A stretch of 64,000 bases of DNA, from positions 1,561-65,560 of the forward strand of contig JAAOMT010000112.1 in NCBI GenBank assembly GCA_016748015.1. The letters run 5' to 3'. The DNA comes from Geosiphon pyriformis uo1. Lineage: Eukaryota > Fungi > Glomeromycota. Below are positions 14,761 to 46,241 of this stretch, piece after piece. Each line of letters begins with the position of its first letter. The first letter of the stretch is position 1. A program made the position numbers and the translations under genes. Under the pieces are notes generated by a model. That model made no database searches. It had not been told where the DNA came from and saw only the letters and a list, made by a program, of their open reading frames with translations.

Positions 14761-14915
14761 TCAGTCATAAGTCCAAGTAGTTCTAAAGTTTTAACTACCA
14801 AAATTGGTGGTTTAGAATCCAAGATGATGGCTTTGGAGGTTTCGGTTGAATCTGTTTTGGAAAAATTGGATCATTTGTGCTCAGGTTTGGGTTTGTTGGC
14901 TGCCTCTATTTCTCA

Positions 14916-21602: not shown

Positions 21603-24600
21603 CTATATACCAAGATTTCTTATTACAGAGACATCACACAAAAAACCAAAATCAGATCTGATTAGACATAAATATAGCCCAAAACACACATAGATACCTA
21701 GCCTGAAACCAAACTCCCAGATCGTCTCAGTAGATCATGATAAAGACAAACCAGATACTGAAGGAATAGAAGAGTCATCACATGGCAGGAGATTATGCTT
21801 TTCATAATAAAACCTTAACTTAGCCACAGACAACCAAATGGCAGACCTGTGTCTTTCAGCAAAATAACAAATGAAATTAACAACCAATACACCTTCACCA
21901 GATTCAGCACCCAAATGGCCCAATGTGTCAACCATCCAACTTTTCAGCACAAAACCCTTAGCCAGTGCAGTGAACAAGTCCATGAAAGAAGCAGCCTCAA
22001 TCAGCAAATTAGTGACTGCATTCCCATTGGCAGAAGTGTTTAGTAATATATTCTACTCTAAAGCAGCATTAGACAATAAAGTATCCTGAACATTGACATT
22101 ACAAATACAAGAAAAAATGTGATCAGAGTTCTCTACTAAACCATACTGAATACAGACAATGTTTGGATAATTCGGGTTATACATTTTTTTCTTTTTGGCA
22201 ACTGGCAAACAATAATAGAATGTCTTTATAAAGTAAGATTGAAGTGTCGCTAACACAGTATTAGTGTAGCTAGATCTGATTCTGCTATTAAGATGCCAAA
22301 CACAAAAAGTCTTGGTTTTATCAAAATAATTACTGAGACTCATACTAATAACGCTACCAACACATTTGGCCTTTCAACCAACAGATTGAACAGCATTGAA
22401 TAATATTTTAACAACATAACAAGTGTTTTTGAAGACATGTCTGCTCTCAACATTAAGAAAGCAATAAGGTACCACAAAAGACAGAAAGAATCCAGAGGCA
22501 ATAGTTGCATCAGCATAGAAATTGGCCCATTCATTTCCAACAACATCAGAATGGCCTTTGACTTTATTCTAAGTAACTGACAAACTTTTTTTGGAAATGA
22601 CATAGCAAATATGTTTCTTCTTAATCCAGTATTTGTTGTAAAAGTCAGGACCAGTCATACCACCAGCAAATTTGCACATGTTTAGTAAAGCTTGGCTGTC
22701 TATATACAAAACAACAGACTGAGAAGTGGGCATACACTTCAAAGCAAGTGCAATAGTCTGCAGTTTTACTAGAGTTAACGACAACAACCCATTCACTTTA
22801 ACTCTAATACTAATGTTCACATCTGGAAAATAGGTGGTAGTACCATCACAAGCACCCACCAAACCCAAATTTTTGACAGAACTATTTGTGTAGATGGTTA
22901 TAAAGTCAAATCTGGAATTCAGTAGATGCTTACCAATGTAACCAAAGTCACAAAGAAAGTCAGTGGGAACAAAACAAAAAGACAACAACACACTATTTGC
23001 CAAGCCACTTTCAACAATAAATTTGACCAAAGAAACAAACCAGACAAAAACTGGGCCTCTAAGGTCCAGCTTCTTCTATCTGCAAAAAGTATTCCATGTA
23101 AAACACTTGCCATAGCAGTTTAAAAGCTGGTTTACAAACACAATACTGTATTTTTTAAGAGACTTCACTATGCCCAAATAAGACTCAAAACTGAGCATAT
23201 CTAAAACTGCAATACTATTCCCAGTCTAAAAAACATCAGGCAGATCACTGTTCAATGATAAGTTACACAACTTGAGAGCACATGTTACACCAGCCAAAAA
23301 GCAGTTTGCAGGATCAACCAGTAACTCAATTGGAAATTTAAGAGGGTGTCAGAGCATTCAGCTTGTGGTCTACAACTCCATGGCTCTGTATTTGAATAAT
23401 TCACCAAGGATTTTGTCAACATTAGCAAATTTAACCAAGCCAGCCAGCAGATTCTCAGACAGTACTTGCTTAAAAGTTCTTAAGTCATACAGCTCTGGAT
23501 GATACAAAGCTTTATTTGGAAAGTTCTTGGGCAGATTGGTCTTGAGCTTCAAATCCTTCCTTAATATTTTGTCCCACTTTTCACATACACTCTTGAAAAC
23601 ACAACTGAATTGCAGTCTATAACCAATTATAGACTGTAATATAGCAGAAACCAAATATAAAAACTGCTTTTTAGTAACAGCTTTCCTTAAAACCACATTT
23701 GAAAAGAACTTGATATCTGAATAAGCTTTGGCCAAACTCGGCTTAGACAAGCCATTCATAGAAAAAAAGATCTATAAGTATCAGTAAAACTCACTCTTTT
23801 TTACAATGGAGATTTCTGAATCACTAATAGATAATAAAACATCTTTGGCCTCTTGATTAATAGGAATGGCAACCATTTTGTCTGTGTTAATAGCAATGTC
23901 ATTGATCAAAAAAAATTCACTCACAATGTCTAAAATGTGTTGTGTAGCCACTAGGCAGTTTTCAACCCAAATAGTATCATTCACAAAGGCACCAGTTGCA
24001 AAAAAAGAAGTTTTGCCAACCTTAAGGTTAGCCCTACCAGTCTTAGTAAAAAATTTTGAATTCAACCTATATCCACACAGATGTTCATGCTTTTTGACCT
24101 CACAAAACAGAGAATCATAGAAGATTCTTCACAGCAATGGTGAAAAAACTTCCTCTTAATCCAACCCATTATAAACAGTATATCCATCAGTAAGTTTAAA
24201 GTTTGTTATCATTCAGTTGGTCCGACCATTGTGTATGTTTCCAAAAAATTTTATAAAATGGAGGCACATCTTAATCCTAACTAAACTGTTCTACAAATAA
24301 AGCTATTTGATTGAGTTATAAGCTTTTCACATATTTTGAAGAACCAGTCATAGCTCCCTGCTTTTTTCAAGTACATTCTCAATAATAAAGCCAATGGTAA
24401 AAATTGGAGTTTAAGTAGACGTACTTTTTAAAACTAAGAAATTATCACTACAAAGGACATTAAATTTACTGTATGCCAGAGATATCCTGTCAGAAAGAAC
24501 TTTAGACAATATCTTCCTGGTCATCTCAACCAAAGCTATAGGCCTGGTATTGGTAAGTGTTCTCTTCCAGTCATACAGCTTTGGTATCATTGAAATCTAG

Positions 24601-26292
24601 GCTTGCCTCCATTGTAGGAGAACTGCACCTAACTTTAAACACATATTAAGAATATTCAACAAATTTCTCAGAATCTAAGCATCTCCATGTTTTCAAAGCT
24701 CATTAGAAATACCAAAAATGCCAGCAGCTTTCTCATTAGGCAGTTCTTTGACCACCAAGAGAAACTCATTTGATCTAATCACATCTATAACATCTGAGAA
24801 TGCACTATTACTGACATAGTTCAAGAAAGCATATTGATTAGACCAACAATCAGGCAGAGAGATAGGAGCAACTTATTTCCTTGTCCATCCTTCCATGATA
24901 TTATTAATGGCAAATTTAACTTCTTTGGATTTTAAAATTAACTCATCATCCATTATTAGATAATCCAACACTACTTTCTTAAAAAGCCATTCCAAAACAT
25001 TTTTGATCATATGTTCTTTATTGGAACTGAAGGTTTCTATGCACTTGTTTATTGCTTTCCTAATCAAAATGTCTCTGGCTACTCTAGACTCATAGTATTT
25101 GGACTTCTGGTATGATTTTTTGACTCCTGATAGGTGTTGAAGAATGTTCTCCCTGCTTTCACCATTATTAAACATTATGTATGCTTTGGAGGTTCTTTTA
25201 CTATCAAGAGTGAACCACACTTTAAAGAGACAAACAGCTTCTAATTCCTGATTTAAGCTCAAACACTTAACTAACTTGGCCACCAACAATTTCAGCTTAA
25301 AAAACTTTAAAGACAGCTTATTTTTCGGACAATTAAACTCACTAAACTAGTGTCTAGAAAACACACTATTAGCTAAGCCTATAACCACTTTCTTGAGAAT
25401 TCTCCATATAGCATTCAAATTTCTATCATCTTTTGTATTATTAAATATATTTATATTTTTCAAGAACTTGTCTAATGAACATTCCCTAAAGTGTAACCAC
25501 TTATCAGCATCTGCATTCTTGATCTTTGAATTTTCACTTATCTTTATTGGTCTGTTTACACTTACCATTGAGCTGGACATTCAAGAGACTGCCCAGTCTA
25601 ATTGAAACCAAAACAGCATTATGATTAATGTTAAAAAAATCAGAGACAGGAGTAATCTCATGATCAGCCAACATAGACAACAAATTTTTGCTCATGAAAA
25701 TGTAGTTGATAACTTTTACGACACCCTGGGAGTTGCTTCAAGTGGAAGCTCTGACCAGAAAGTGTCCACTAAAGGAGTTGACCAACTCCAAATCCGAATA
25801 GAACTTATAACTAGCACTTTTTCTAGATCCATTTTTATTGAAATCACTGCTGAGAACCACAAACATGAAGAAATTAGCAGCCTTGGCAATAAAGAAGTTG
25901 ATTTTGCAAGCTTGGCCAAATCTGGTTTTAGCAAAAGCACCTGCATATAGACCCAAAATCACTACTAACAATTTGCCCTTAAAAAGAAGCTGAACAAAAA
26001 TAAGACAATTAAGAATTTTTTTAATCTTAGAAACATAACATACAAGAAAATCATTCATAATAATTGCCATCTCAGCACCAAGAAATCTTTTGTCCAAACC
26101 AGAAGAGAATATTTTTACTTCATCAAACTTGTTTATAATCCAAGACCTAGCTTTGGACTTCAACTTTGTTTCTGTAACAATAGACACCATACATCCAGAA
26201 TCTATATGCCACTGAACAATGTCTTTTTGCTTGGCAAGAACATTGATACCACAAACATTGCATGTTACAATTTTCCAAACCAGATCTATCAT
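21603..26292 (-). pseudogene. LINE D ORF2: APE-RT-RNase H-Zn finger
   Basis: Fragments 25738-26292 (WKIVTCNVCG), 23781-24065 (GAFVNDTIW), 22569-23030 (RNase H), 22053-22343 (Zn finger). Confidence 0.88.
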
Positions 26293-27419
26293 TGAAAAAG
26301 ATGCACAGCAGAAATCAAACCAGCATTGTCAATTTTGGCCAAAAAACCCATAACCATGATTAAAAGATTGTTCAAAGTTTTTTCTATTTTAGAGACAACT
26401 GAAAAATCAAAAACTGCCACTTCTACAATAGTCTTATTACTAGTGACCACATCTGAACTCTTACTTATCACTATATCTGCTCCTTGATTTTGTGATAAAA
26501 GGATTACCAATGGCTAATATCCAGAACTAGGCTGGAAAACCATTGGCCTAGGTGAGTCCAATCTCTTAACCAACTTGTCAACACATTCCACAAGGCTAAC
26601 AAATTATGCTCAAAAGTGGCAAACTTATTATTTAATTCTACAGACACCATCAGGGTAGATTTTATCTCTGAAGAGGAACTAAAAGCAGTTGTGTTATTGT
26701 ATACATGAAGAGAAGGGAATGAAAACCCACCAACAATGTTGGCCCATAAAACACCATTAAAAGACATGGGACAGAAGATTGGAGCAAAGCATTTAGCATA
26801 AATGGAAACCAGTTTGCTTTTATTATCATCCAACAATATCCTACAAGTTGTACCACTAGGAGAAACATTCTCATCCACAGAACAACTTAGAGATGTATGA
26901 CCTAAATTCCTACACTTAACACACTTAGCAGAACTTAGATAAAATCAATGCAGATTAGCACCTTTTAAGACAGGTGTAGTTTCCATAATAGCATCAATTG
27001 AAGCAGCAGAGTCAAAACAAACAACAACACACTTGGCCTAAGCATATATAACAGGGTGTTGATTAATAACACATGTTTTTCCACTCACAGAGCCAATAAA
27101 GTCTCAGATATCATGAGCATTGGTACCCACCAGCAGTGTATAAAGCAAAGCCCTATGCTGATCTCTTGCATCTCATGATTCTTTGTCTGCATTAGTCTTG
27201 GCCACTTTCACAGCATCTTTCCCAATTAAGATAAACCATTTAGCTGTGACCAAATCAGCCTGATCTGATTGGGCAAATTCAACCACAGTCTTCTGTCATA
27301 GTCTTACCAATTGCATCTTGATTAACACAACAGAACTAAATTCAGAAAGTGCAGTTCACACAGCCTTAGCTGAAGTTCCAACCAGAATTTTTTTTACCAC
27401 CACAGTCCAATCTGAATGA
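26289..27419 (-). pseudogene. LINE D ORF1, 3' part
   Basis: SDWTVVVKKI..., GKDAVKVA, ALLYTLLVGT, KTCVIN, CVKCRNLGHTSLSC. Confidence 0.8.
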
Positions 27420-28289
27420 TGTTATAGGTAACTAGTCTGGTGTTGAATTAAATAACAAACCCATAACTTGGTGCTCAAATCTAGTTGCAGTTGATAGTAA
27501 TCTGAAGATTTGTGTCTGAAAGGTTTGTATCTGAAGGGTTTAGTTGAGTTCTTTGTATAATGAACAGAGATTCAATGGTAATAGTTTTATCCATAGCTTC
27601 CTGAAACCGCAGTTTCATTAATTTCTTTTTCAGCTTGATGGCCAGTATTCCTCCTGGTAAGCTATCTTCAATCAAGTGTTCTACCCTTATTTCTGGGTCT
27701 TTTACCAGTCACATTTATCTTAACATCAGTACCCCATGCGTTAATCCTCAATAGAGTTAGTAAACAACAATAAAATCAAAGCAAAAAATAAAGAAAAGAA
27801 AAGAAAATAAAGAAAGAAAAGAAATAAGCCAAGGCAATTTGCAAGTTAGTATTCCGTCAATAGCCATGATCAAGAGCTATTGTTTCAGTGTGGTTAAGTA
27901 TCGATTACTATCAACATGAAGTGTTGATAGTGGCAGCAGGTTTGAGATAACAAACAGTTATTTATTTGTGGTTTGGAAAGTTGTCCAGATGAAATCTAAA
28001 CTGAGAGGTTTGTCTTTTTAGTTTTTAATCTTACTGCTATATATACATAATTGAGATTTCTCAATTCCTCAATTCTTTACAACAGGAATCCTGGGATTCC
28101 TGGAATCCTGCAATTCTTTTGAAAGGAATCCTGGAATTCTGGAATCCTGCAATTTCTTATAAGAATCCTGTAATTCCTAGAATCCTGCAATTCCTGAGAG
28201 GAATCCTGGAATTCCACATTTTACTATATCTACTTCTAATTGGTTAATAACTATGCTAATATATATTCCCTATATTTCTATGAGTAATA
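27420..28289 (-). repeat. 3' LTR (870 bp)
   Basis: Direct repeat of 36782-37621; about 30 bp longer in the internal repeat block at ~28083-28215. Confidence 0.95.
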
Positions 28290-28292
28290 TTA

Positions 28293-28304
28293 TTCCCTCT
28301 TTTT
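28293..28304 (-). other. Polypurine tract (AAAAAGAGGGAA)
   Basis: Lies 3 nt upstream of the 3' LTR on the minus strand; a similar tract AAAAAGGGGAA lies at ~28339-28349. Confidence 0.8.
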
Positions 28305-28962
28305 AATATTGAGCTCTGTTGAAATCTAACTCTGTTAATTCCCCTTTTTGAAGTATTTCCTGAATTTTATTTTCGAGAATTACTTGTGTTATTTGAGTCT
28401 GTAATTCTTTAAATTGAGCATTGGTGATCTTTCCTAATTGATTACTGGTAACCATATCCATTGTTTTGTTGAGTAAGATTTCTGGTCAATTTTGAAATGC
28501 TGTGTGTATTTGGTACATGACTCGGGCCTGTGTAGATAAGTTGTTCTTTCCCAAAAAATGTTCTAATTGTTGTAGTATTCTTGTGTTGAATAATCGCTTT
28601 GTTTTATCCATATATAGATTCTGGATATTCAAGTATTGTTCCAAGTAAAAATAACAATAGTTTCTTGGAAATTGTTGTATCCACCAATTCCAAGTTTCTT
28701 TAGTCAACTCTTGGTATAGTGATTTTTTTGTCGACTCTTTAATTGCTAATTTTACTTTTTTAATGATTTTGTCAACAGTATTTTCTGTTTTCTTCTGTGT
28801 TTTATGTGGTGATGTTTTTTTAGTGTCTTGATATTGGATGATTTGTTAATTAATTGTAATTTCCATCTCTTGGTGTTGAATCAATTGAAAGAGTTGTTGT
28901 GCTAGTAAGTAAATGTTGTCTGTAATTTCCATTTTTCTGATATTTCTTGTCACATCTATCAT
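28303..28962 (-). pseudogene. Gypsy ORF3, unknown ~219-aa protein in the env position
   Basis: ATG 28962 to TAA 28303 in one frame, with only two internal stops (TAA, TGA), each one C>T from CAA/CGA; includes track ORF 28486-28707. Confidence 0.75.
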
Positions 28963-28985
28963 GTCTTTATATATTCTTTGATAGA

Positions 28986-30368
28986 TTAATTTAATGTGTT
29001 GTTGTCAATGATAATGATTGGTTCCAGATCTCATGGAATTTTCTCTGGTTGGACTAGTATCTTCTGTACTCCTAATTGTGGAATATTACTGGTGGATAGT
29101 GGTGTGATGTTGTGATATGATTTCAGTCAATCTCCATGTGCTGCTTTGGTTAAGATTTTGTTATCCAGTCTTAATTTGTAAGCTCCATTCCTTAGAATTT
29201 CTTCTATGTGAAATGGTCCATCCTATTTGGGATCAAATTTTCCACTCCATTGTTTTTCCGCTTTAGTACAATGTAAGAGTACTTTGTCTCCAATCTTGAA
29301 TTTAACTGGTTTGTCTGGTAGTTGATTATTATGTCTTTCTTTTTGTTTTTCTTGTGACTTTTGTATATTATCAACTGCTTTTTTTCGTTTGTTTTCCAAT
29401 GTTTCTATTAAGTCATATGTTCTTCTTAACAATGTTTCTTGGAAATTCTCTTCTGTTATTGGTTCAGTTAGATATGTATTAACCTTTATCTCAACTGGTA
29501 ATGTTGCTGTTCTACCATATATCAATTCAAATGGTGTTGCTTGTGTGGTGTTTTGTTTCATTGTCCGATAAGCAAATAATACTGATAGTATGAACAAATT
29601 CTATTCATTTTGGTTTTCTTGGCTGAGTTTTGCTATTGCTTCACACAATGTTCTATTAAATCTTTCAACTAATCCATTGGTATGTGGATAGTATAGTGAT
29701 AATAGTGGTCTCTTAATTCTGAATCTTTGGCTTAGTTCTGCTAATGTTTTATTCACAAAATGGGTTCTTTGGTCTGATAATAGTTCTTTTGGACATCCAT
29801 GTTGACAAATCAGATCTTGATAGATGAATTTGGCAATAGATTCTGCATCCACTTTTTGAATTGCTTTGGCTTTTGGCCATTTAGTAAGATAGTCCATGAC
29901 TATTGCAATATATCTGTTGCCTCTGTTGGTAATTGTCAATGGTCCAACTAAATTAATTCCAATACAGTCAAATGGTTGTCCCACTTTGATTGGTCTCAAT
30001 GGTTTGCTGGGTCTTGTTCCTCCTTTTCTTTGACAAGCATCACAATTTTGCATATATTGAATGATGTCTGGATATATTGATGGCCAATAGTATCTCTTTC
30101 TGGTTCTTTCCATAGTTGCTTCTTTATGAAAATGTTCTGTAGTTGGATCTGAGTGCATATTGAACAGTATTGTCTCCTTTTCTGGTTCTGTAATTACTCT
30201 GGTTGGTTGATCTGAATCTTTTCTATTTTTTTGATAAAGTATATTTTGGTGAGTGATAAAATATTTAGATTGTTGTTTGATCCTCTTTTGTTCTAGTTGA
30301 GATAATTTCTCCTTGAATTGTTGAGTATTTATATAATGTTGAAGTTGTTGATATTTTTATGTGTTCAT
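28986..30368 (-). pseudogene. Integrase (HHCC-DDE-GPF), apparently a stand-alone ORF of ~460 codons
   Basis: MNT*KYQQLQHYI.. is in frame with 29601-30158 and 29223-29597; HSDPTTEH..CDAC, LLSDQ, NGLVERFN, DGPFHI; no chromodomain seen. Confidence 0.85.
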
Positions 30369-30429
30369 TTTTTGTTATATTTTCATGAGTATTGTTTTGG
30401 CTTTGTTATATTTTTGGATTGAAATGTTC

Positions 30430-33400
30430 TTAGATTTGTCTTATTTGCAATAAACCATCAGCATTTCCGTTGTTTTTTCCCTTTTTATAATGTATAGTAT
30501 AAGTATATGTCAAAAGAGCCATTTTTTATTTTAACTGTCTTCTGTCTTCAAATTCTTGTTTTTGGAGTGATGTCAATCTTTTGTGATCTGTGTACACCTC
30601 AAACTTTTGGCTCAAGTATTCTTTCCATTTCATAACTGCCCAATAGATTGCTAGATGTTCTAATTCTGGTGTTTCATAGTTCTTTTCAGCTGGAGTCAAA
30701 TCTCAGCTGGCATATGTGACTGAATGTTCTCTTCTATCCAATCCTCTCTGAGATAGTACTGCTTCCAATGCTTGACCTGATGCATCAGTAGTGATAATGA
30801 ATGGTTTACTATAATCTGGATAGATCAATACTAGAGCTTAAATAAGCTTTCTTCTTAAGATGTCAAATGCTTCTTACTGGGTTTCAGTCCATTCATACTT
30901 TGCATTTTTGGTTTGAAAATTATTAAGTGGTTGTGCTATCTTTGAAAAGTTTTTTATGAAGCGTCTATAATAGCTTGTGAATCCCAAGAATGATTTCAGC
31001 TTGGTTACATTGATTGATATTGAAAAGTTCTTTACTATTTCTATTTTCTCTGGATCTGTTTTTATGCCATCTTTGCTAACTATGTGTCCCAAGAATTTTA
31101 GTTCTGTTTTGCCAAAAAAACACTTTGTTGTATTTAATTTTAATTCTGTTCGTCATAGTCTTTCAAACACTTGTTGGAAATGACATAGATGATCATTGAA
31201 TGTTTTTGAGAACACATTGGTGTCATCCAAGTATACAACTACTAATTTCCACAATAAGCCAATATACACAATTTTCATTAGCCGTTGAAATGTAGCTGAA
31301 GCATTGGTTAAGCCGAATAGCATAACTTCAAACTCAAAGTTTCCCTCTCTTGTAGTGAATGCCATTTTTTCTTTGTCGGCTGGATCCATGGCTACTTGTC
31401 AGTACCCACTATCCAAGTCTAACATTAAGAACCATTTGTTTTCATCAAAAGTGTCAAATAGTTCTTGTATCTATGGAGTTGGATAGCTGTCTTTATGAGT
31501 TACACCATTGAGTTTTCTGTAGTCTACACAAAATCAGATTTTTCTATTCTTCTTATGGATGAGTACTACTGGTAACAACCATGGGCTTATTGATGGCTGA
31601 ATTAACTCGTTGTCAAGCATTCAGTTGATTTCTTGACAGATGATTTTATGGCTGGCTAGTGGTACCCTATATGCTTGCTGTTTGATTGGCATTGTATCTC
31701 CAGTCTTGATCTGATGCTGAATAATATCAGTTCTGCCAAATTCATTTTCACTGGCAAAGATGTTATTGAAATTATTGAGTATCATTTTTAGTCACATTTG
31801 TTGAAGTGGGTCTAGATTTTCCATGTTTATCTGTTTCAATTGTTCTGGCTGTAACAGATAATATTTGTTTTGTCCATAGATGGTTTGTGATGTAATGTCC
31901 ACATATCTACAAAGCTGTGGAAAATCTGGAATACTGCTTGGTGCTTGATCTTTAATTTCTGTGGTTAAATATCTGAGAGTGGTTCTTTCTGGTATCTCTA
32001 CAACATTTCCAGTGTTGTTGTAGATGGGAATTTTGATATGGTTATGGCTCTTGGCTGGTATGTGTAGATTGATAAGTCCAATTTCTCCTGATTCACAAAG
32101 AGTTGCTTCTGCTTCAAAAATTTGTTCTTGCTCCTTCTTTCTCCTTTCTATTGCTAACATGTATTGGCTATATGGTAGAATGGAAATTGTTTGACTGGTT
32201 GAGATAATTTCTCTTTGGCCAATAATTTTTTCCTCTACCATATTGACTGGTACATCTATTCTACCCATTGATCCAAATCTTTGTATCCCTCTTGCTGTTA
32301 TCCCTAATTCTTTCCTATTTCCCACTAAAACTAACTGAGCTATTTTTACCAGAGACAGGAATATTGCCTGTGCTATTCTTTCATTTGGCTCTATAACATA
32401 GGCCTTTTCTGAGTCATTTTGTAGCATAGCAATTATATTTTCTACATATCTTGCATTAATTATTCCTCCTCTGATGTTTATTCTCTTTTTCACTAAACTA
32501 CTTCTAGATGCTAATTGAATTATTGTTGTTGCTGAAATTTCCAGTGTTATTTTCAGATCGATGCAAGTATGCGAATTGGGTTTCAATTTGATGGCATTTT
32601 TTCTTGGATATCTTAGATCAAATCCTGCATCAGTATCATGCACATGTTCTGGCATGATATCTTCATTATTATCACTGAACCATTTCAGTTCTTGCTCCTT
32701 GGTGAGATTAGGGAGTGTGATATATTGTTTGTAGTTTAAATCAGAGTTTAAATCTGAGTTGGAATTATTGTCATTATTATAGCCATTTTGAATGGAGCTG
32801 GAATTGTTATTTTTGTTATCATTATTGTCAGAGTTTAAATCGGGATTGGAACTCGATTCCAATTCTGATGTGTAGCTGTTGATTGGTTCTTCTTCAGGGA
32901 TCGTGTAGATCATGCGTGGTAGTGGATTGTAGATAAGATCACAATCATCACAGAATTAAAAGTTACATGGAATCAAACAGTGGTCACATAATTGGGTGTT
33001 GATTTTTTTTAAGCATTGCTCTTGCTCTTCTCTCATGGGTGCTAGATTCTGATAGTGTTCATGAAATTCTTCTAGGCTGTTTTCTAAGTCAATAAAGATG
33101 TTTGGGTTAAGAACCAAAACAATGTCTGTTGGTTCTAAAGGGTTATTCTTGATCTTCAGAATTTTATTGGACAAAGTGCCTTTTACTTTAACATTGGCCA
33201 TTCACCAGATCTTATCCTCGTCGTGTGGATAGCTGTCTAGGCGGAATATAGCTTGGTGCCATGCTGCTATAATGGACATATCACAACTTACCCAGTTGCT
33301 AATGAGGATTGTGTATTGGCACAAAGTGTCACACGTTCCTCCTCAACCAGGAATGTTGTTCCACATTTCTTCATCGAGTAATTGTTTGCCACAAACAAAA

Positions 33401-36400
33401 CATGGTTTGTTGTCCCACTTGCTTTGTTTTTTTGGGTAGCCATATTGTTCCCTATGGCAGAGTTTGCAATAGTAATGGGTTTGTGTCCAGTAGTCTTTGT
33501 TTAGTACTACCTAAGCTTCCATTGAGGACAGTTTCTTTCCACAGTTCTTGCATTTGAGAGGTATATATGGCAGCTCTTTTATTGGTTCATGTGAGTATTC
33601 CCTTTTCCAGTCACTAGTTATTTCTTCTGCAGTGGTGGTTTCTTTAGGTATGTTTTCTTCCCTTCCTTTTCCTTTTTCCTTGCTCTTTTCTTCCCAATCT
33701 AGAATTGGTAGCATCTCGCTTTAGTTGTTGTTGGTCCAAGCATTAATGGTGGCTTCTCAGGTAGATTCTTCTCTTTGTTTCTTCTTTCTATTGTTATTGT
33801 TGTCCCAGGTGAGTATTGGTGGCAGTTTGTTGTGGTTGATGTCGGCCCACAAGACTTGGTATGCTTCCCAGATGGGTTTCACTTTTTCTTCCTCGAATTC
33901 GATAAGTGGTGTTGATGGCATAGCAATGGGCTTGAAATGGCCACACATGGTAGGTACTCATGTGTGTTGACCATTCTGGCTAAGCTGGAGCTCTTGGGTG
34001 TTCCAATCTAAGGTTGTGTTGATTTTGAACAGCCAGTTGTTCCCAACAAGTGCTTGGTATTGAGTGGCTTCCATGATGAGTACTTTGATTGGTACTATGA
34101 GGCTGTTGACTTCTATGGGAAAATCATCAATTTCTCCAATAGGTGTTTTGGTCACTCCATCAGCTGTAATAATCCTGGCACTGGCAGCATGATCAACTCG
34201 GCAACCTAATTGATCTATAAGTTGTCTTGTGATGATGCTGCCAGCTGATCCACTATCTAGGATCAGTTTGATGAAGTGACCATTAACTTTCACATTAGTG
34301 TACATCATGGTGATGGGTTTTTTCTCAAGTGCTACTTCATTGAACAAAGATGGGTTGATGGTTTCTTCCAATTCAAAAGGAAAGATGGCTGCGAGAGATT
34401 TGTTTTTAGTAATCATTGCTGGTGGAATATTGTTGATAAGTGTTGTTTGGGGTGGGTTGAATTCCAAGTTGTTGATAGTGGCATCTTCTGGAATAACCAG
34501 GAGACTTAAATAGTTCTGGGAATTCAGATTTTGGGTGGAACCAGTACCCGAATTCTGCTATCAAAAGCCTGATGATTGGTAAGAAGAGCTGAAGATTGGT
34601 TGATAAACAACCATCGCTGATCTCCAGTTTTGAGTGATTCTAGGTCTTAAGTTTCCTGATGTTATTTGAGTGGAGTTTTGGAGTGGTGTTTGAATTGGTT
34701 GTTGGGGCTGATAAATTATTTGGGGCTGTGGCTGATAAATTACTGGTGGTTGCAGTTGATAAATTGGAGGTTAATATACTGGCGGTTGATAGATTGGTTG
34801 CTGCGTCATTGGCAAGTAAATGGTTTGATATTGGTTTTGATTTGGGTAGTAATTTTGAGTCTGAAATCTGCAATTGGGGTTTCAATATTGATTTCCCAAT
34901 CATGAATTGTTGCTATAAAATCAACAGTCAGCTCTAATGTGACCTTGTTTACTACAGTTGTGGCAAACATGCATTTTTGGCTGCCATGGCTAATTGGATA
35001 ACAATGATGACAATGATGTTGATGGACATGGCTGATTTTGGAAACAATTTGTGTTTTCTGAATTATTGCATTGTTGTGGTGGTTGATAGATTGCACAATT
35101 GTTAGCTAAGTATCCCTCTAGTTTCTAATTGATTGTATTACTGAATTGTTTTAGTTTGAAATCCAAGTCAGATGATTCGTTCATCACTAAATTTACAGCT
35201 TGGGCATGTTGGCTTTTAGCTCAGCTGCTTCAAAATCTCTGGCATGGGTAACTGCAGTGGGAAGGTCAACTAGATGCATTGGGTGTACTCGTTGGAGGAT
35301 GCTGCTGCATAGCCCTCTGATGAACTGGTTCAAGATCTGTGGTGCCATAAAATAATTAGCTTGGATTGCCTAAATTTGGTGCAGATTTCTATGGAAGTGT
35401 CTCAAGTAAGTGGTAACTGCTTCTGTGTTCCCTTGTTTGATAGTAGTGAAGGTATTAGTCAAGCAATTGATACTGTTATTATTACTAAAATATCTCACAA
35501 ACTCTGTCTTAAAATCATTGAAGATTTGGGGTTTGGTGACTAGACTCTGATACCATGAGTTGGCAGTATCCTTGAGAAAGTATGGAATGGCTTGCATTGT
35601 CCTGGCATTATTCTATCTATTGGCTGCAATGGCTTTTTCGATGTTGTTAAGCCAGACTTGGGTGTTGTCTTCTTCATTGGTAAAATTGTCGATTTTGGCA
35701 ATTGGAGTGTAGGCCATTGGATCTAAATTTAGTTGCTGTTGTTGGATGGGTGGCTGAAGTGGTTGTTGTGGCTGGTGAATCAGCTGCTGGGGTGGTTGTA
35801 AATTTTGCTAATTTGGCAGCTGAATTGGTTAGAGCAGTTGTTATAGTGACAGTTCAATGAGTTCAATTGGTGGGTGATTGATGACGATATTCAGAGATAA
35901 GTTTAGATTAATTACTCCGGGATTTTTATTGTCTTGATTTAGTGGTGTTCTAATATTCGGAGTTTTGATTTCAGAGTTTTCTTGATTTGGATTTCTCGGA
36001 GTTTGATCATTCAGAGTTTTGAATTCTGGGTTTTTAGGAATCAGGTTTTCCTCTTTTTCTTGTTCTTCTTCTTTAGACAATTCCCACAGAGTAGCAGTGC
36101 TGAAATCTGGTGGCAATGGTGGTGATCAAAGTCCTGATGGTGTTGGCAATCACGAGTTAAATCCTTCAAAATATGCGCCATATGGTCCTAATAACTCTGC
36201 TTTCCTTTGTTTACTTTGGAATAAGAATCATCCAAATGCTGATGTCGTGTTTGATGTGGCTGCGCCAGTAGATGTAATATTAATGGTGCTTTCGGGTATA
36301 TAGTGGTATAATGGATTAGTTGGGGACTCAATTCTTGTTTTCTTTCAAGTAGGTGGTTGTATTTTTTTGGGTGTTACTGCTGATGTTTGCAGTTTTTCTT

Positions 36401-36722
36401 TGCCTTTGCTTGCGTAAGTAATGGGGTATCTTTGCTGTGTGTGATGTTCAATTTCTTTGTTGATTTCTATGATGATGGAGGCGAAATTGTGATTTGTTGG
36501 CAGGTTGGTATTTTAAATTAATTCACTGTAAAAGGCTTCTCTTGCTGATTCAATATTTACTGGTGTTCTTAACAGATGGGCAATTCTTTCATTGATGTAG
36601 AAATTAAAAGCTGATTCTGCTGATATGTGGTTGTGATTTAATCCCAAATATTAACAGTAGTGTTGAAATAAGGATTTCATGAATCCTAGATGGTTTGCTC
36701 CTATGTTTTCTGATTCTGCCAC
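30430..36722 (-). pseudogene. gag-pol polyprotein without integrase (capsid, CCHC, protease, Cys-rich insert, dUTPase, RT, RNase H)
   Basis: MAYTPIAK..AIPYFLKDTANSWY capsid; CHNCSKQGHIRADC; LILDSGSAGS; DYRKLN, YLDD; TDAS, YTDH, NADGL. One frame from 34980 to 30430. Confidence 0.92.
32260..32690 (-). pseudogene. dut: Trimeric-type dUTPase domain within pol
   Basis: All five motifs, partly mutated: DAGFDL, ASRSS, GGII(N)A(R)Y, ERIAQ, RGIQ(R)FGS(M)G. Confidence 0.9.
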
Positions 36723-36762
36723 TTTTAGATTTGTGTTGGTGCTGGTTCTCTGTAAGATTATA

Positions 36763-36779
36763 CCTCACAGAAAGCACCA
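36763..36779 (-). other. Primer-binding site TGGTGCTTTCTGTGAGG
   Basis: 2 nt inside the 5' LTR end; complementary to a tRNA 3' end ..CCUCACAGAAAGCACCA. This resembles elongator tRNA-Met ends, but the identity is inferred. Confidence 0.8.
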
Positions 36780-36781
36780 AA

Positions 36782-37621
36782 TGTTACAGGTGACTAGTCT
36801 GGTGTTGGATTAAATAACAAACCCATAACTTAGTGCTCAAATCTAGTTGCAGTTAATAGTGATCTGAAGGTTTGTGTCTGAAAAATTTGTATCCAAAGGG
36901 TTTGGTTAAGTTCTTTGTATAATGAACAAAGATTCAATGGTAATAGTTTTATCCATAACTTCCCAAAACCACAGTTTTGTCAATTTCTTTCTCAGCTTGA
37001 TAGCTGGTATTCCTCCTGGTAAGCTATCCTCAATCAAGTGTTTTACTCTTATTTCTGGGTCTTTTACCAATCATGTTTATCTTAATGTCAGTATCCCATG
37101 TGTTAATTCTCAATAGAGTTAGTAAACAACAATAAAATCAAAGCAAGAAATAAAAAAAAAATAAAAAATAAAGAAAGAAAAGAAATAAGCCAAGGTGATT
37201 TGCAAGTTAGTATTCTGTCAATAGCCATGATTAAAAGCTATTATTCTAGTATGGTTAAGTATCGATTACTATCAACATGAAGTGTTGATAGTGGCAGCAG
37301 GTTTGAAATAACAAACAGTTATTTATTTGTGGTTTGGAAAGTTGTCCAGATGAAATCTAAACTGAGAGGTCTGTTTTTTTAGCTTCTAATCCTACTGCTA
37401 TATATATATAATTGAAATTCCTTAATTTCTCAATTCTTCACAACAGGAATCCTAGAATTCTTGGAATCCTGCAATTTCTTTGAGAGGAATCCTGCAATTC
37501 TGGAATCCTGCAATTCTTTATAAGAATCCTGTAATTCCTGGAATTCCACATTTTACTATGTCTACTTCTGATTGGTTAATAACTATGCTAATATATATTC
37601 CCTATATTTCTATAAGTAACA
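36782..37621 (-). repeat. 5' LTR (840 bp)
   Basis: TGTTAC..GTAACA termini; TATATATATAGCAG TATA-like box at ~37395-37410 on the minus strand, downstream of the U3 repeats. Confidence 0.95.
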
Positions 37622-38374
37622 ACAACCAGTTAATTTCTTGAGATCAGTGTTTACCAAAATATTTGCCACTCTTGCTTTTTTTGTAGCCTGTGCCAAACTA
37701 AATTCAGAAGTAAAGGAAGCATAAATGATTCCTGAGAATTTTAAGGGGGTAGAGGCCTCGCCAAAACCATTAACTTTTGAAAACAATCTTCTAATGACCA
37801 TCAGCTTCTCTTGAGAAGATTTTCCAACCACTTTATTCAAGCTGATATCTAAAGTGAAAGATTTCCTAACAGAAATAGTAACCAAATTCTTCAAGGGAGA
37901 GGGAAGTTCTAAGATAACATTCAAGAGAATATTATCATTATCATCACTATGACTTAAGAAATCTATTCTCCCCAATGGCTTGCCCAAAACTTTTTTAGTT
38001 TTAACATCTGGCCTTTTAGGCATCTGATCATAATCTTCATTAACAATAGCCTCACTCTTACCATAGTCAAAGCTAGTTTTCTCTACTAGACATTTTTCCT
38101 CCATATCAATACTTTCAGACTTGGTGGTGTCATCAGTCTTAGAACCCCATAAACAATCACTTGGCACCTTAGTTAGAACTCCCTTTTTACCAACACCCTC
38201 TTCCAAAGCAACACTTTTTTTCTTTTTCCTTGACAAAACAAGCCTGAAACCTCTACCTAAACCAGAATCTTTAGCAATCTTTTTCATGATGGTAATACTA
38301 GGGCCAACAGTGGCCTTAAAATCAAAAAACGGTTTGGTTTTATCGTACTGAATGTTGAAAAAAACTTTTTTCAA
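37622..38374 (-). pseudogene. LINE D ORF1, 5' part
   Basis: Track ORF 37610-38374: KSFTLDI..FSKVNGFGEASTPLKFSGII..VNTDLKK; resumes at 27419. Confidence 0.85.
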
Positions 38375-38430
38375 AAAAACTTTTGACTTTTTTTGGGAAT
38401 TTTGGAATGAACGAGAGAAAAAAGTTTTTT

Positions 38431-38990
38431 TAAAATTAATAATTATAATAATCAGATTATATAATATCTTAAATTATATAATATTTAAAATATTTAATAA
38501 TTTAACAAAATATTCAATAATTTATAAAAATAACTTATAGTTTGCCAAAATATATTTTTAATTTGTTAAAATATTACCAAAAAAATGTTAAATTATAAAA
38601 TAGTATTATAACAGATTATATAAAAAAAAGCTTCTTTTTTAAAAAAAAAAATTATTTTGAATTAATAGTCTTAATTTAAAATTATTTTTTTAATAAACAT
38701 TTAATTATTATAAATAAATTTAATAAAATCTACTTTAATAACCAAATTTTTTTCTATTTATTATTGTTTAAAATTTCTAATTATAATTAATTTTATTAAT
38801 TATATAATTTTTATTTTTTTTAATTTTAAAAAAAAAAATTTTATATTATTAAATAATCTATAATTAAAACTTTCTATAAAAAAATTAACTTTAACAGTAA
38901 AATAACTACATATTATTAAGAAGCTTATATAAAAATTTTTTTGTAAAAGAATTAACTTTTATCACAAAATAACTATATAAATAATTAATA
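38431..38990. repeat. Hypermutated partial family-2 LTR
   Basis: Colinear with ~19210-19865 after C>T/G>A conversion (e.g. AAATAACTTATAG, AAAATAACTACATA). Confidence 0.65.
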
Positions 38991-41078: not shown

Positions 41079-44000
41079 CTACACATCTATAATTACCCGC
41101 ACACTGCCACCCAGACTGAAAAAGAAACAATAAGGCTTCCGACGACCAAAGCTAACAGCAAAAGAATTGGCCACACCAAGCAATCTCACAACACCATCAG
41201 ACAAAACCGAAGACACACCACAAGGGAGCCCAGAAACAACACCAATGTCACAGACCAGACCAGCCTTTTCCATCACCACCCAGTGACTGGCCCTAACTAA
41301 CCATACTTTAGCATGATGCAACCCAACAACAAACCTGACAAAATTAACAATCTGAGCAGCGGCCATCTTTCTATCTTTAAAAACACCACAAGCCTCCTTA
41401 TACCACTCCTCCAGCACAAACCCTTTGCACACCAAAGTGTACAGCCCAACATCAATAGAACATTGAGACAAAACTCACAACACAGCAGAAGCAAAGGAAC
41501 CACCAGCCAAAGCTGACCAATGGGCAGAAGCCTCCACCAAAATCTCACCACGGACATCAGACTCATGAACACAAGTAAAAGCGTGGTCAGAGAACTCCAC
41601 CTTACCGCAAAACAAACACAATACACTAGGGTAGCACTTATCATACAACTTTTTTCTTACCGCCACCGGCAACCTTCTGTGTACAGCCTTCATAACATAA
41701 GTGCAAAGCAATGAGGATGCACGGCTAGTAAACCCAGCAAGCATATGAGAATCAGGATGCCACACCTCTGCCGTGACAACCCAGTTTATGCAACCAATCA
41801 TTGCATCCGGAACCACATCACAACCAGGCCCAGCTTCCCAACGAGCACAACAAATTGATCGAAAAATATTTCTGACAAAATGATGGGCATTACCAGAAAC
41901 AGCAACACCCTCAGCAACCAAACAATGTTCACGCACATTGGCACAAAGGGAAAAGGGAAACCCAGAGGCAGCCCCAGCAGCCAAGTCAGCTTTTACATTA
42001 CCAGGAATCCCAGAGTGTTCTTTCACCTTAACCCAACTCACGCTAAGATCCTTATTCCTAACCAAATTGAAAATATGACACCTTTCCAGCCAGCATTGAT
42101 TACGGAAATCAGGGGCAACCAAGGACATCTCAGAAACACATGCGTCAATGGCAGCCTGGCTGTCAAGACGTAGCACCACAGTACTAAAAGAAAGAACACA
42201 CTCCAAAGCCAAAGTAACAGCCTATAATTCAGCCATAGTAGATGACAAAAGGCCACGAACAGCGACACTAATGCTTTTATCCAAGACCGGAAAGTATGCA
42301 ACAGCACCACAGACAACCTCAACAGAGCCTACATTCCTCAAAGACCCATCCGTAAAAACCTCAAAAAAGCCTGACCAAACATCATACATCACATCTTTTA
42401 CTGCAGAAAATTCCTCAGACCCCAAAATGTCCAAACCAAGCTTTTCTGCAGAGCCAATAGAACCAGAAAATGAGTAACCCTGACCTCTCAAAAACTCAGA
42501 AGAAACCATAAACCAGTGAGGCACAGGGCCATGCAGATCCAACTTTTTCCAATGACAAAAAGTTTTCCAATTCAACAAAATGCCCTTCTTATCAAAAAGC
42601 CGATCACCAAAAGTGACACCAAAACATTTAAGAGATTTGACTGAATCAAAATACAGAGACTTTCCAAGAACAGAGAACAATGGAAACCGACCAGGACTAC
42701 AAAATGCAGTGGGGAGGTTGTTCACCAAAGCAAGCTCATTGTCTAGAAAGATCTTCACCATCCCAGCCAAAAAATTGTTTACTGGACTAACATGCAACCT
42801 GACCGGAAACTGCAAAGGATCCAAAGGAGCCCAATCAAGAACCTGAAGGTTCAAAAACCTATGTCTAAACAAATGCCCAAGAATACCATAGGCATTAGAG
42901 AACGCCATTAAAGCAGCAACCTTCCCTTCTGACTGCACCTGCTCAAAAGGTTTTAGGCCATACAATGAGGGATGATGCAAAGCAGCATCTGGAAAATCAT
43001 GGGGAAAACAAGCCTTGGACCTAAGACCCTTTTTAACCAAGACATCCCACTTGCAACAAACATTAGATGAGACAAAACTGAACTGAATATAATAGGCAAC
43101 AATAGGCTGCAAAACAGCCAACACCAGATAGGAGAACTGTTTGTCTGTAATAGCCTTCCTAAGCACAACATTAACGAAGAAACGTACATCTGCATGAGCC
43201 TTGGTGACACTCGGCTTGGAGAGCCCTTCAGTTGACAGAAAAATACCCAGATACTGATGTGCTTCCCCTTTCTTGGCAATAGAAATTGGCTGACCACAAA
43301 TGTCTAGTGAAGCAACTTTAACACCCTAATTGATGGGAATAGCTACCGTCTTCTCACTATTAATAGAAATATCATTGATCACAAAAAATTCACTGGCAAT
43401 GTTCAGAGCATATTGAGTAGAAGCTTAACAATTTTCAACCCAGATTGTATCATCAACAAATGCACCAGCTGAAAAATATGATGTCAAACTGCCACCGCTC
43501 TCAATTCTGCCAGATTTTGAAACAAACTTAGTATCAATCCGGTACCCACACAATTGTTCGTGCCTCTTAACCTCACACAAAAGCGAATCGTAAAAAATTC
43601 TCCAAAAAAGTGGCGAAAAGACCTCACCCTGATTCAGCCCATCATGTACCTTATAACCACCAGACAAACCAAAGTCAGTCATTACCCTATTAACTCTATC
43701 CTCATAAATACCACCAAAAAACCTTATGAACCTCTTACACATCTTGACACGCCGCAAACTAGCTCTTAAATGGTGCCACCCAACTGAATCATAAGCTTTC
43801 TGCATATCTTGCAAGACCAACCATAACTCCCTATCCTTCTTAATGGCATCCTCAATCACCAATCCAACAGCAAACACTGGAAATTGGGTAGACATACCCT
43901 TCAGCACCAAAAAGTTGTCACCCTGAAGAACATCAAACTTGCTACAAGCCATTAAAATACGATCAGACAGAATCTTAGAAAGAATCTTTCTGGCTGTCTC

Positions 44001-46241
44001 AATCAAAGCAATGGGCCGAGTGTTTATAAGAACTCCATCCCAGTCATAAGGCTTAGGAATTATTGACACCCAAGCCCTCTTCCACAAAACAGACACCACA
44101 CCAACAGACAAACATTTATTAAACAGCGCCAACAGGCACCCCAAAACCATCTCACTACCATGTTTCCACAACTCATTAGGAACACCAGACAAACCAGCAG
44201 CCTTGCCATCAGAAAGACCACCAACAACGGAGAGTAATTCGCCCATACTGATTGCACTCATAACACCCGAAAAAGCATCATCCCGAACATGGTCCAAAGG
44301 CATGTACTGACAAGTCCAAAGACCAGGAAGCACTGACTGCACGGAGCGTTTCCTCATTCACCCCTTCATTATTCTATCCACACTGGACTTCACCTCTTCA
44401 GACAACAAAACCAGATCATCGTCAACTATCAAGTGATCCAACACGATCTTACAAAAAGGCTTTTCCAACACACTCCTGATCATATTACCCTTATCTGAAC
44501 AGAAATTATCCATGCACTTCTCAATCACCTTCCTAACTGAAGCTTCCTCAGCCAACCTTGATTCAAACATTTTTGATCTCCTGTAATCTCTGCGAACCAA
44601 TGACAAATGTCTAACAACAACATCAGATTTAACACCCGAGCCCACCAAGTCCTTGAAAACACGAGCCTTCGCGTCATCCAGAGTCAACCATTTACTCACA
44701 AGATGATCAGCACCCAGCAAGTCACCAGAGCAAAATTTTTTGACAATCTTGGCCACCAACAANNNNNNNNNNNNNNNNNNNNACTGACGAGCCCAAAGAC
44801 CAGGAAGCACTAACTGCACGGAGCGTTTCCTCGTCCACCCCTCCATTATTCTATCCACACTGGACTTCACCTCTTCAGACAACAAAACCAGATCATCGTC
44901 AACTATCAAGTGATCCAACACGATCTTACAAAAAGGCTTTTCCAACACACTCCTGATCATATTACCCTTATCTGAACAGAAATTATCCATGCACTTCTCA
45001 ATCACCTTCCTAACTGAAGCTTCCTCAGCCAACCTTGATTCAAACATTTTTGATCTCCTGTAATCTCTGCGAACCAATGACAAATGTCTAACAACAACAT
45101 CAGATTTAACACCCGAGCCCACCAAGTCCTTGAAAACACGAGCCTTCGCGTCATCCAGAGTCAACCATTTACTCACAAGATGATCAGCACCCAGCAAGTC
45201 ACCAGAGCAAAATTTTTTGACAATCTTGGCCACCAACAATTCCAGACCAAAAAACCTAGAAGAATGTTTGTTTCTCGAACACTCGAATTCACTAAACCAA
45301 TGCCTTGAAAATGTCATATCAGCAGAATCCACCACAGTCCCCACCAAAACTGCTCACATTGCATCCACATTACCACATATTTCGGCACCAGAGAACACCT
45401 CACCCAAAGACAAAAGTTTAGCTGATGAGAAATCCTTAAACTTAGCTCATCCAACACAGTCAGCATTCTTGATTTTGAACTTCCAATGATCTTTATTCGC
45501 CTGCTTGCGCAAACTATTCAATTGTACATCTAGAAGCCCACCCAAACTGACTGAAACCACAACTGCCTTGTGATTGGTGTCAAAGAAATCCGAAACAGAG
45601 ACAACTTGATAATCAGCAACAGCAGAAGACAAATTACCACCAACAAAAATGTAATCAATCATTTTCCCAACCCCTCTCGAATTGCTCCATGTATAAAAAT
45701 TAGCCAAATGATGACCAACAAATGAATTGACCAAACCCAAACTCAAACAAAACTTGAAACTAGCACTTCTACCAGATCCATTCTCATTAAAGTCTCCACC
45801 CAAGATAACAAAATTGCTGGAGTTGACTGCCTTTGCAATGAGAGAGTTAACTTCAGAAGCCTGACCAAATCTAGCCCCAGAGGAGGCACCAGCATACAAC
45901 CCCAAAACAGTAACCGAGAGCTTGCCCTTAAACAGGAGCCGAACAGAGACAACCTGACCAGGAATTTTTTCCACCTTAGATACATGACGGGCCAAAGAAA
46001 CGTTCATAATAATTGCAACCCCAGCACCCATAAAACCTTTATCCAAGCCAGAAGAAAATATTCGCACTCCATCAAATTTGTCCTTTATCTATGGTCCAGA
46101 AGAGGACCTCAACTTAGTCTCAGTGATGAAAAAAACCATATTCCCCAAGTTCACATGCCAACAAATAACATCTGCTTGCTTTGCAGAAACATTGATACCC
46201 CGAACATTGCACGTAGCAAATTTCCAAACCAAACTACTCAT
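41079..46241 (-). pseudogene. LINE E ORF2: APE-RT-RNase H-Zn finger
   Basis: CNVRG, GGDFNE, RPIALIE, DMQKAYD, QGEVFSP, AFVDD, FTDGS, WVKVKEHSG..GN..AD, CLFC..DHAFTC. Confidence 0.92.
44763..44782. other. Assembly gap (20 N) flanked by a 457-bp direct duplication (44306-44762 / 44783-45239)
   Basis: The copies are identical except 6 transitions in the first ~65 bp. Confidence 0.9.

Follow-up and report, generated by a model that had tools for sequence, protein, structure and literature searches.

Integrase (IN) reaches the particle as part of Gag-Pol in textbook LTR retrotransposons, and an element in which IN appears as an open reading frame (ORF) of its own raises the question of whether such a split is an accident of decay or the organization of a distinct lineage; a clade with a separate IN must solve integrase translation and packaging differently. 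We address this question for an element on the minus strand of positions 27420-37621 of the window, the 64,000-nucleotide stretch of Geosiphon pyriformis DNA analysed here, where it is inserted within a LINE-like element and has Geosiphon pyriformis entries as its best-matching proteins.

A dead Ty3/gypsy element with a stand-alone integrase ORF

We find paired LTRs, a primer-binding site (PBS) and a polypurine tract (PPT) around gypsy-type Pfam families in the order protease (PR), reverse transcriptase (RT), RNase H (RH) and IN, features that identify a Ty3/gypsy element and, together with the ORF junctions, confirm the layout described in an earlier note on this DNA (Table 1). Every ORF is interrupted: the gag part contains 11 internal stops, the pol part 25, IN five and ORF3 two (Pfam was run on read-through frames, with X at stops), and a frame break near 35208 is specific to this copy; the fungal Ty3/gypsy retrotransposon at 27420-37621 is a dead copy. 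The LTRs are 88% identical (blastn), and 72 of their 74 differences over 840 aligned positions are transitions, found in CpT (22), CpA (21), CpG (17), CpC (8) and mixed (4) contexts, so that classic RIP confined to CpA is unsupported. The right copy of the target-site duplication (TSD; 37622-37625) differs from the left in two of four letters.

Table 1. Features of the element and their positions in the window
Feature	Positions	Strand	Evidence or remark
5' LTR (TG...CA)	36782..37621	-	
Primer-binding site, begins TGG, 2 nt past 5' LTR	36763..36779	-	
gag N-terminal extension, ~350 codons, without shared ATG	35717..36764	-	
Capsid domain (Retrotrans_gag / Ty3_capsid)	35310..35588	-	Pfam Retrotrans_gag E 5e-11
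CCHC zinc knuckle	34924..34965	-	
Aspartic protease (LDSGS)	34030..34296	-	Pfam E 5e-10
Insert, five CxxC pairs and Asn-rich tract	32700..33900	-	without Pfam family
dUTPase, trimeric-type, motifs partly decayed	32250..32655	-	Pfam E 2e-16
Reverse transcriptase (YLDD)	31078..31557	-	Pfam RVT_1 E 8e-27
RNase H and Pol stop codon (30432-30430)	30430..30891	-	Pfam RT_RNaseH E 2e-28
Non-coding spacer, 61 nt	30369..30429	-	between Pol stop and IN ATG
Stand-alone integrase ORF, own ATG 30368	28985..30368	-	HHCC, DDE core, GPF/SH3 end
ORF3, ~219 codons, ATG 28962, 22 nt past IN stop	28303..28962	-	no Pfam family
Polypurine tract, ORF3 stop overlaps	28290..28304	-	
3' LTR	27420..28289	-	
4-bp target-site duplication, left copy	27416..27419	.	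assigned by position against empty homologous site 47402-47405

Gag, protease, CxxC insert, dUTPase, RT and RNase H form a single frame that ends at the stop at 30432-30430. A GTG at 36722 lies in the gag frame and is a plausible candidate for the start of gag; read-through into gag from the LTR is ruled out because the PBS carries a stop in the gag frame, at 36767.

The ATG of IN at 30368 is in a different frame from the Pol stop, and the spacer between them contains one IN-frame stop, 5% G and no YAG, and is unstructured (folding z 0.24). The IN ORF matches Integrase_H2C2 (E 3e-16), SH3_Tf2-1 (E 4e-5) and, below the family's curated cut-off, rve (E 1e-5); the first Asp of the DDE core reads as Asn in the window copy. 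At E<=0.1 the read-through IN of this decayed copy matches no chromo family, and none is listed in the stand-alone homologues. In a mapping of 2530 contigs (run X1), neither the Pol stop nor the IN-frame stop of the spacer is variable among the 40 of 50 variants listed; the IN ATG is retained in ~80% of contig depth, and the stop at codon 4 of IN is confined to the window copy, with another letter in 99%. Spacer length is variable among copies, and the indel table of this mapping is unreliable, listing no indel even at 35208, where the window copy has one. All but one of the best 120 IN homologues have an initial Met, and the distance from IN start to the HHCC His is 62-78 aa in 102 of these 120 (window, 71; mode, 71); this search covered stand-alone proteins of 255-812 aa, with fused forms outside that range. 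A search of viral contigs for IN returned three weak fragments only.

The integrase is separate in close relatives

In 12 of the 26 top-ranked metagenome loci the contig includes where the upstream ORF ends as well as where IN begins, and we find that IN is separate from the upstream ORF in all 12, with RNase H present on the contig in 11 and several carrying Pol and IN free of stops. The 12 spacers range from -8 to 727 nt and place IN in frame 0, +1 or +2 relative to the upstream ORF, and in 10 of them, as in the window, an IN-frame stop distinct from the Pol stop lies between the ORFs. A control set of 37 loci that are more distant and carry both RT-RH and IN comprises 22 fused, 6 split and 9 unclear junctions, and three of the six split loci sit on short branches next to fused copies. 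An RT-RH tree (34 rows, quick search) groups the window element with eight split loci (SH-aLRT 98), and in the IN tree support for the window's group is only 94, with L011, L020 and L025 outside it; both trees were built without named reference elements.

Because the Pol stop is common to the copies, all 12 close relatives are split and the RT places them in one clade, the split is, on sequence grounds, ancestral rather than a product of decay, and assignment of the window element to a distinct split-IN clade is supported. These three lines of evidence bear out the earlier claim of an integrase that forms its own ORF in a distinct lineage, and a single gag-pol-IN frame, which would have told against it, appears neither in the copies nor in the close relatives with a readable junction.

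The dUTPase and CxxC insert are missing from the close relatives examined

The earlier note also counted the dUTPase and the multi-CxxC insert among the marks of the lineage, and here the relatives disagree: a dUTPase query returns no match under E 3 in 83 loci, and the CxxC insert is not found in the close relatives examined. The five pairs lie between protease and dUTPase, at 33552, 33468, 33402, 32988 and 32952, and the distance from PR to RT is 910 aa in the window element vs 256-327 aa in four relatives (L007 left out). CxxC clusters occur in none of 198 host proteins, which were collected by gag and ORF3 queries and mostly stop short of the insert. To judge from the relatives examined, the dUTPase and the insert are a later gain of the window element's family alone. 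Nor is the dUTPase distinctive in itself, since fungal Gypsy elements that carry a dUTPase between PR and RT have been published before (PMC2864245), PosPlaTy3-5 of Postia, Phanerochaete elements and Tmt1 of Tuber being among the cases given in the available parts of PMC2864245 and PMC6431247. The window element shares this placement and differs in its stand-alone IN, a separate integrase not being described in those parts of the two papers; compared by description only, the CxxC insert upstream of the dUTPase and the lack of a chromodomain match also set it apart.

ORF3 reaches the polypurine tract and differs among relatives

The ORF3 stop overlaps the PPT, in agreement with the earlier note; its conservation holds among host copies but not throughout the relatives, where ORF3 is missing from the sub-clade of L007, L012 and L017. 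We find no Pfam family and no convincing PDB sequence match for ORF3. Comparison of the window ORF3 with a 145-aa ORF3 family of the relatives gives hhalign probabilities of 0.4% and 4.2%, with scores no better than shuffles, and a weak bridge runs between the two through P0219; a relationship is only suggested. The structure model of the window-family ORF3 is unusable (pLDDT 38.9), and the relatives' ORF3 is modelled as a small all-helical protein, for which Foldseek finds no match at E<=0.001 in PDB or BFVD (best VIA Z 4.9), a lack of matches to the model that does not show a new fold. The ORF3 of errantiviruses is env, a membrane fusion glycoprotein; the window ORF3 has no Pfam match that would place it, and the relatives' ORF3 is small and predicted to be all-helical. 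Any role of ORF3 in the element would be a matter of inference.

Junction architecture and an RNA structure upstream of the integrase start

With the window counted, 10 of 12 non-overlapping spacers are 30-163 nt long; they have 0-1 upstream ATG and a G content of 5-21%. The remainder are those of L007 (365 nt, seven upstream ATGs) and L015 (727 nt, 12 upstream ATGs), which speak against scanning reinitiation. Pol and IN share a start-stop overlap in L017, and IN and ORF3 an ATGA overlap in L006; these overlaps and the mostly short, ATG-poor, G-poor spacers favour reinitiation. The IN start has a purine at -3 in 10 of 13 cases and G at +4 in 10 of 13, and YAG is absent from six of the 12 non-overlapping spacers, including that of the window.

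A covarying 40-nt RNA structure lies 4-16 nt upstream of the IN ATG in eight relatives of one sub-clade, an observation in favour of the reading of IN set out below, and all eight copies end in YAG close upstream of this ATG. A covariance model run over 80 loci and the window recovers only its eight training copies and L004 (E 0.12), so the motif is not found in the window element, whose spacer, with neither overlap nor structure nor motif, speaks against reinitiation. Rfam gives three weak matches, none located at the motif, and the motif pattern has no match in viral contigs or prokaryote genomes; two copies, folded alone, do no better than shuffles (z -0.34 and -0.33).

Routes to the integrase protein

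We regard it as somewhat probable that the clade is one in which Gag-Pol terminates behind RNase H, IN and ORF3 each form a gene that starts at its own ATG, IN is likely made by reinitiation or internal initiation, and its packaging would proceed apart from Pol. Since the genes are separate in intact relatives, integrase would likely come from ribosomes that restart, or initiate internally, on the element's own RNA, a step to which we give roughly even chances, and the protein may then enter the particle by binding element RNA or Gag/RT rather than within Pol. Synthesis of IN (and ORF3) from a subgenomic or spliced RNA, as for foamy virus Pol, would leave the split unchanged and is possible, if doubtful: the long, ATG-rich spacers of L007 and L015, the strong IN start contexts and the YAG that ends the motif near the ATG in 8/8 copies would suit it, but half of the spacers lack YAG, the L017 and L006 overlaps would be superfluous under such a route, and the covariation seen in the motif stem is not something that a plain splice acceptor needs.

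The remaining alternatives concern the split itself. That a programmed frameshift or stop read-through joins IN to RNase H is formally allowed at L008 (same frame, single stop) and at the L017 overlap, but all three frame offsets occur and a further IN-frame stop intervenes in 10 of 12 relatives and the window; the junctions show that such fusion would be impossible in most relatives, and we hold it to be very improbable overall. The least credible account, extremely improbable in our estimate, is that an ordinary element with a single gag-pol-IN frame came to look split by decay: heavy mutation of the window copy (almost exclusively transitions between its LTRs, 41 internal stops across gag, pol and IN) and the sporadic splits among distant, mostly fused relatives (6/37) would fit it, but not a Pol stop common to other copies with spacers of varying length, a 12/12 split in close relatives that include stop-free Pol and IN, or the conserved initiator Met of IN. 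An IN cistron captured from, or ancestral as, a Ginger-like transposase cassette never fused to RT-RH is improbable as well; the ~420-aa stand-alone HHCC-DDE-GPF protein resembles the N-terminal part of Ginger1, and the 4-bp TSD, assigned here by position, is as for Ginger1/2 (both from the available part of PMC2836005), but this integrase is enclosed by LTRs, with PBS and PPT, and an IN tree without a Ginger reference gives no direction.

Comparison with known systems

A literature search that left Repbase/GyDB, subscription journals and supplements outside its scope found no published description of a separate integrase in such elements, and none appears in the available portions of PMC2864245, PMC2836005, PMC11952901, PMC3248453, PMC6431247, PMC5972666 and 10.1101/2021.03.30.436303. 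We tentatively propose that mycorrhizal-type fungi harbor an old polycistronic LTR-retrotransposon clade in which synthesis or packaging of an independent IN may be steered by RNA signals, including the uncatalogued 40-nt element at the IN start, and a small ORF3 of no known fold might serve as a lineage-wide helper. If true, LTR retrotransposons would possess, in this clade, their counterpart of foamy-virus Pol. The split layout would explain many stand-alone 'DDE-type integrase' gene annotations in Rhizophagus, and such elements may be taken in error for broken copies or for DNA transposons; it is also relevant to the joining of RT and DDE integrase modules, and the clade would be a compact test system for eukaryotic reinitiation after a very long ORF.

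Gmr1 carries IN before RT within Pol. Gmr1-like elements also have an unusual IN placement, but ahead of RT, and the window IN lies downstream of RH; loci with IN before RT (L071, L076, L079) lie on branches distant from that of the window element in the RT-RH tree. Chromoviruses carry a chromodomain at the IN C-terminus, for which the window IN has no match. Foamy viruses have the entire Pol separate, made from spliced RNA; in the window element IN alone is separate and RT is still fused to Gag. Synthesis of foamy virus Pol apart from Gag is a precedent for a separate RNA (PMC3196705, PMC3705302), with packaging through RNA bridging (PMC3196705). Ginger1 and Ginger2 have TIRs, 4-bp TSDs and no RT (PMC2836005); they likewise encode a stand-alone Gypsy-type integrase, but that of the window lies in an LTR element with RT-RH. 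Termination-reinitiation has precedents in LINE-1 ORF2, SART1 and fungal victoriviruses, systems to which the L017 and L006 overlaps can be likened (PMC5972666, available part), and the 63-nt spacer of LINE-1 compares with 61 nt in the window; in both, a long ORF precedes a downstream ORF that starts at an AUG of its own. Reinitiation has been demonstrated in those systems, which are non-LTR elements or dsRNA viruses, whereas here it is inferred for an LTR element. Canonical Ty3/gypsy elements comprise two ORFs, with integrase in the final position of pol (PMC3248453), and the window element shares their LTRs, PBS, PPT, capsid, CCHC knuckle, PR-RT-RH-IN order and GPF/SH3 integrase end. Because its integrase is not the C-terminal part of Pol but lies outside that frame with its own ATG, we file the element as a variant that works like Ty3/gypsy rather than as a canonical member.

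Element architecture and decay

The interval 27420-37621 (minus strand) holds a full LTR retrotransposon in which both a primer-binding site (PBS) and a polypurine tract (PPT) were found. With frames read through and X placed at stops, its domain order is capsid, CCHC knuckle, protease (PR), dUTPase, RT, RNase H (RH) and integrase (IN), while the read-through frame of ORF3 matched no family. The two flanks align to one uninterrupted LINE-like sequence in another part of the window, where their alignments share four positions; by position this amounts to a 4-bp target duplication, with letters differing at two of the four. The insertion point lies in the first ORF region of a LINE-like element. 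The copy is dead, because 72 of 74 LTR differences are transitions, internal stops interrupt every ORF (gag 11, pol 25, IN 5, ORF3 2) and IN carries Asn at the first catalytic Asp. Across the LTR pair and run X1, whose contigs were aligned to the element, C-to-T/G-to-A changes make up nearly all differences and affect every dinucleotide context (CpG o/e 0.18), a heavy cytosine loss that matches neither CpG-only decay nor classic RIP.

All 30 host proteins (homologues labelled Geosiphon pyriformis) with the junction motif continue into the pol frame past the site of the frame break near 35208; judged from these proteins, the break is private to the window copy and the family encodes Gag-Pol in a single ORF. 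This brings the element to three ORFs, as the earlier note had proposed. The family is highly repeated, since 72,843 contigs of one run align to its internal region, and a marked LTR expansion is reported for Geosiphonaceae (PMC11952901). The label Geosiphon pyriformis is carried by 78 of 78 ORF3 homologues and by all 120 gag-extension homologues listed; the IN homologues with a named source come from Rhizophagus irregularis. Protein P0501 (P0063 cluster), a member of the fungal-type IN cluster, is attributed by its label to an Acidobacteria MAG, probably through binning contamination.

Features of the element, the window and its metagenome relatives (L loci)
Feature	Sequence	Position	Strand	Basis or remark
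5' LTR	window	37621-36782	-	LTR alignment
3' LTR	window	28289-27420	-	LTR alignment
Truncated copy, related family	window	3657-5547	-	5' LTR, PBS, gag extension; 71% identity; internal deletions
LINE-like element, decayed, holding the insertion	window	21700-27419 and 37622-38473
LINE-like elements, decayed	window	10289-18619; 41079-48271; 51098-57695
RVT_1 match within LINE-like element	window	15804-17726
Tandem repeat	window	60032-60409		unit 39 nt; 7 overlapping register copies
43-nt RNA structure	L002; L005; L006; L010	583-625; 4461-4503; 183-225; 488-530		conserved, covarying
43-nt RNA structure	L013; L016; L019; L023	173-215; 6-48; 490-532; 17-59		conserved, covarying
43-nt RNA structure, weak copy	L004	22-62
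145-aa ORF after IN	L001	2284-2712
PBS and new gag directly after LTR	L001; L005	2716-3226; 6345-6804		tandem elements with common LTR
Pol extension past RH	L005; L015; L002	3515-4438; 4936-6702; 2-541		300-590 aa

The start of gag

From the gag-frame stop inside the PBS, about 350 codons run to a Met at 35717, the earliest that is shared (by 52 of 64 host proteins). This extension was coding, because host proteins have Gln, Arg or Trp where it has stops. A GTG at 36722 is a plausible candidate start, to which we give roughly even chances, because Val occupies this position in 98 of 104 aligned proteins, the flanking letters are A (-3) and G (+4), and the codon sits about 40 nt past the PBS, at a place taken by an ATG in L001, L005 and L015. 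Alternatively, gag would start via a spliced exon from the LTR: many host gene models join such an exon to gag, often linking an LTR-coded stretch (36850-37070, minus strand) to the gag extension with the PBS skipped, and 36 alignments cross the PBS. These models are predictions, and they hint at a spliced 5' exon. Gag of the L001 and L005 tandem elements begins with a CxxC...FWxW domain, which is also present in L015 and host protein P0212.

Integrase as a separate ORF

Pol stops at 30432-30430 and IN starts at 30368, leaving a 61-nt spacer with one further IN-frame stop. Neither stop carries a variant among the 40 of 50 variants listed for 2530 contigs on the junction, and the stop that interrupts IN at codon 4 in the window copy is replaced by another letter in 99% of contig depth. 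Spacer length varies among copies (three joints plus loose ends in aligned contigs); the indel listing from this alignment is unreliable here, having missed the known break near 35208. Among the best 120 IN homologues, 119 begin with Met, with a mode of 71 aa upstream of the HHCC His, the window value; this search covered proteins of 255-812 aa, and any fused forms would lie beyond that range.

Relatives were the best 80 of 561 loci confirmed in a DNA-level scan with the IN alignment. The junction is present in 12 of the top 26, and all 12 are split, which, with a Pol stop unvaried in the listed variants, bears out the claim that IN forms its own ORF. Their spacers run from -8 to 727 nt with all three frame offsets represented, and 10 of the 12 have an extra IN-frame stop between the ORFs. 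The 37 more distant loci with both RT-RH and IN divide into 22 fused, 6 split and 9 unclear cases. The RT-RH tree (34 rows with matches >300 aa, quick tree search, SH-aLRT alone; L001, L008 and L025 among the rows left out) groups the window with eight split loci at SH-aLRT 98; three 'split' rows outside this group are short branches adjoining fused copies. The IN tree (75 rows) places the window inside a 21-row group (support 94), sister to L026, with L011, L020 and L025 outside. L032, L034 and L040 form a distinct IN group (support 100); in L032 the IN ORF starts at a Met of its own and nothing upstream of it matches RT, so that it may be a second type of stand-alone IN. The Pol extensions of three relatives are Cys/His-rich acidic tails without a Pfam family.

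A 43-nt RNA structure lies 4-16 nt upstream of the stand-alone IN ATG in one IN sub-clade (support 90) and is absent from the window. Tested on the same sequences from which the pairing was read, 93 of 96 cells are paired, both sides changed in 6 of 12 pairs, and 0 of 500 shuffles reached the covariation score. It has no Rfam match, and its exact pattern was not found in the viral or prokaryote collections searched. The structure could serve to place ribosomes, to mark where processing occurs or as a binding site for integrase.

dUTPase, CxxC insert and ORF3

The dUTPase and the CxxC insert, the latter probably metal-binding, had been put forward as marks of a lineage; their presence holds and their lineage-wide occurrence does not, as neither had a match in the loci examined and the PR-to-RT distance is 910 aa in the window versus 256-327 aa in four relatives. 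Both are real yet local and appear family-specific. PMC2864245 describes a dUTPase between PR and RT in Postia and refers to earlier accounts from Phanerochaete and Tuber.

Window ORF3 is conserved across host copies, and ten relatives (L001, L002, L003, L005, L006, L008, L009, L010, L015, L026) have a 145-aa ORF at the equivalent position after IN. At E<=0.001 this 145-aa family has at least 491 representatives, with Rhizophagus, Gigaspora, Cetraspora and Acaulospora among their labels; its predicted model is confidently all-helical (pLDDT 95.7), with no fold match in the structure search. Three motifs align by eye between the two, and a sibling host protein bridges them weakly (E 5e-4 and 0.003); profile scores are not above shuffles, and hhalign probabilities are 0.4% and 4.2%. 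We lean modestly towards homology. ORF3 is accessory, since L007, L012 and L017, a split-IN sub-clade in which it is dispensable, lack it and have PPT and LTR directly after IN.

Expression and packaging of integrase

Frameshifting or stop read-through joining Pol to IN is ruled out at most junctions by the occurrence of all frame offsets and extra IN-frame stops. Most spacers are short, G-poor and almost free of upstream ATGs, half have no YAG, and the window spacer is unstructured; start contexts are strong, with start-stop overlaps at two junctions (Pol/IN in L017, IN/ORF3 in L006). These features suggest that IN may be translated by reinitiation or internal initiation, the favoured reading at roughly even odds. 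Production from a subgenomic RNA seems less likely as the general route; L007 and L015, whose spacers are long and contain 7 and 12 ATGs respectively, argue for it at least in those elements.

Comparison with known systems

The usual plan is two ORFs (PMC3248453), and the literature searched, which was without Repbase, GyDB and most subscription journals, yielded no account of any Gypsy lineage whose integrase has its own gene. The window adds a spacer-type Pol-IN junction examined across copies, a dUTPase and CxxC insert that appear family-specific, and, in relatives, a structured RNA next to the start of IN. IN would be packaged via RNA bridging, by analogy with foamy virus Pol (PMC3196705). 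The junctions resemble those of LINE-1 ORF2 reinitiation, with a 63-nt spacer against 61 nt in the window, and those of SART1 and victorivirus reinitiation, as these systems are described in PMC5972666.
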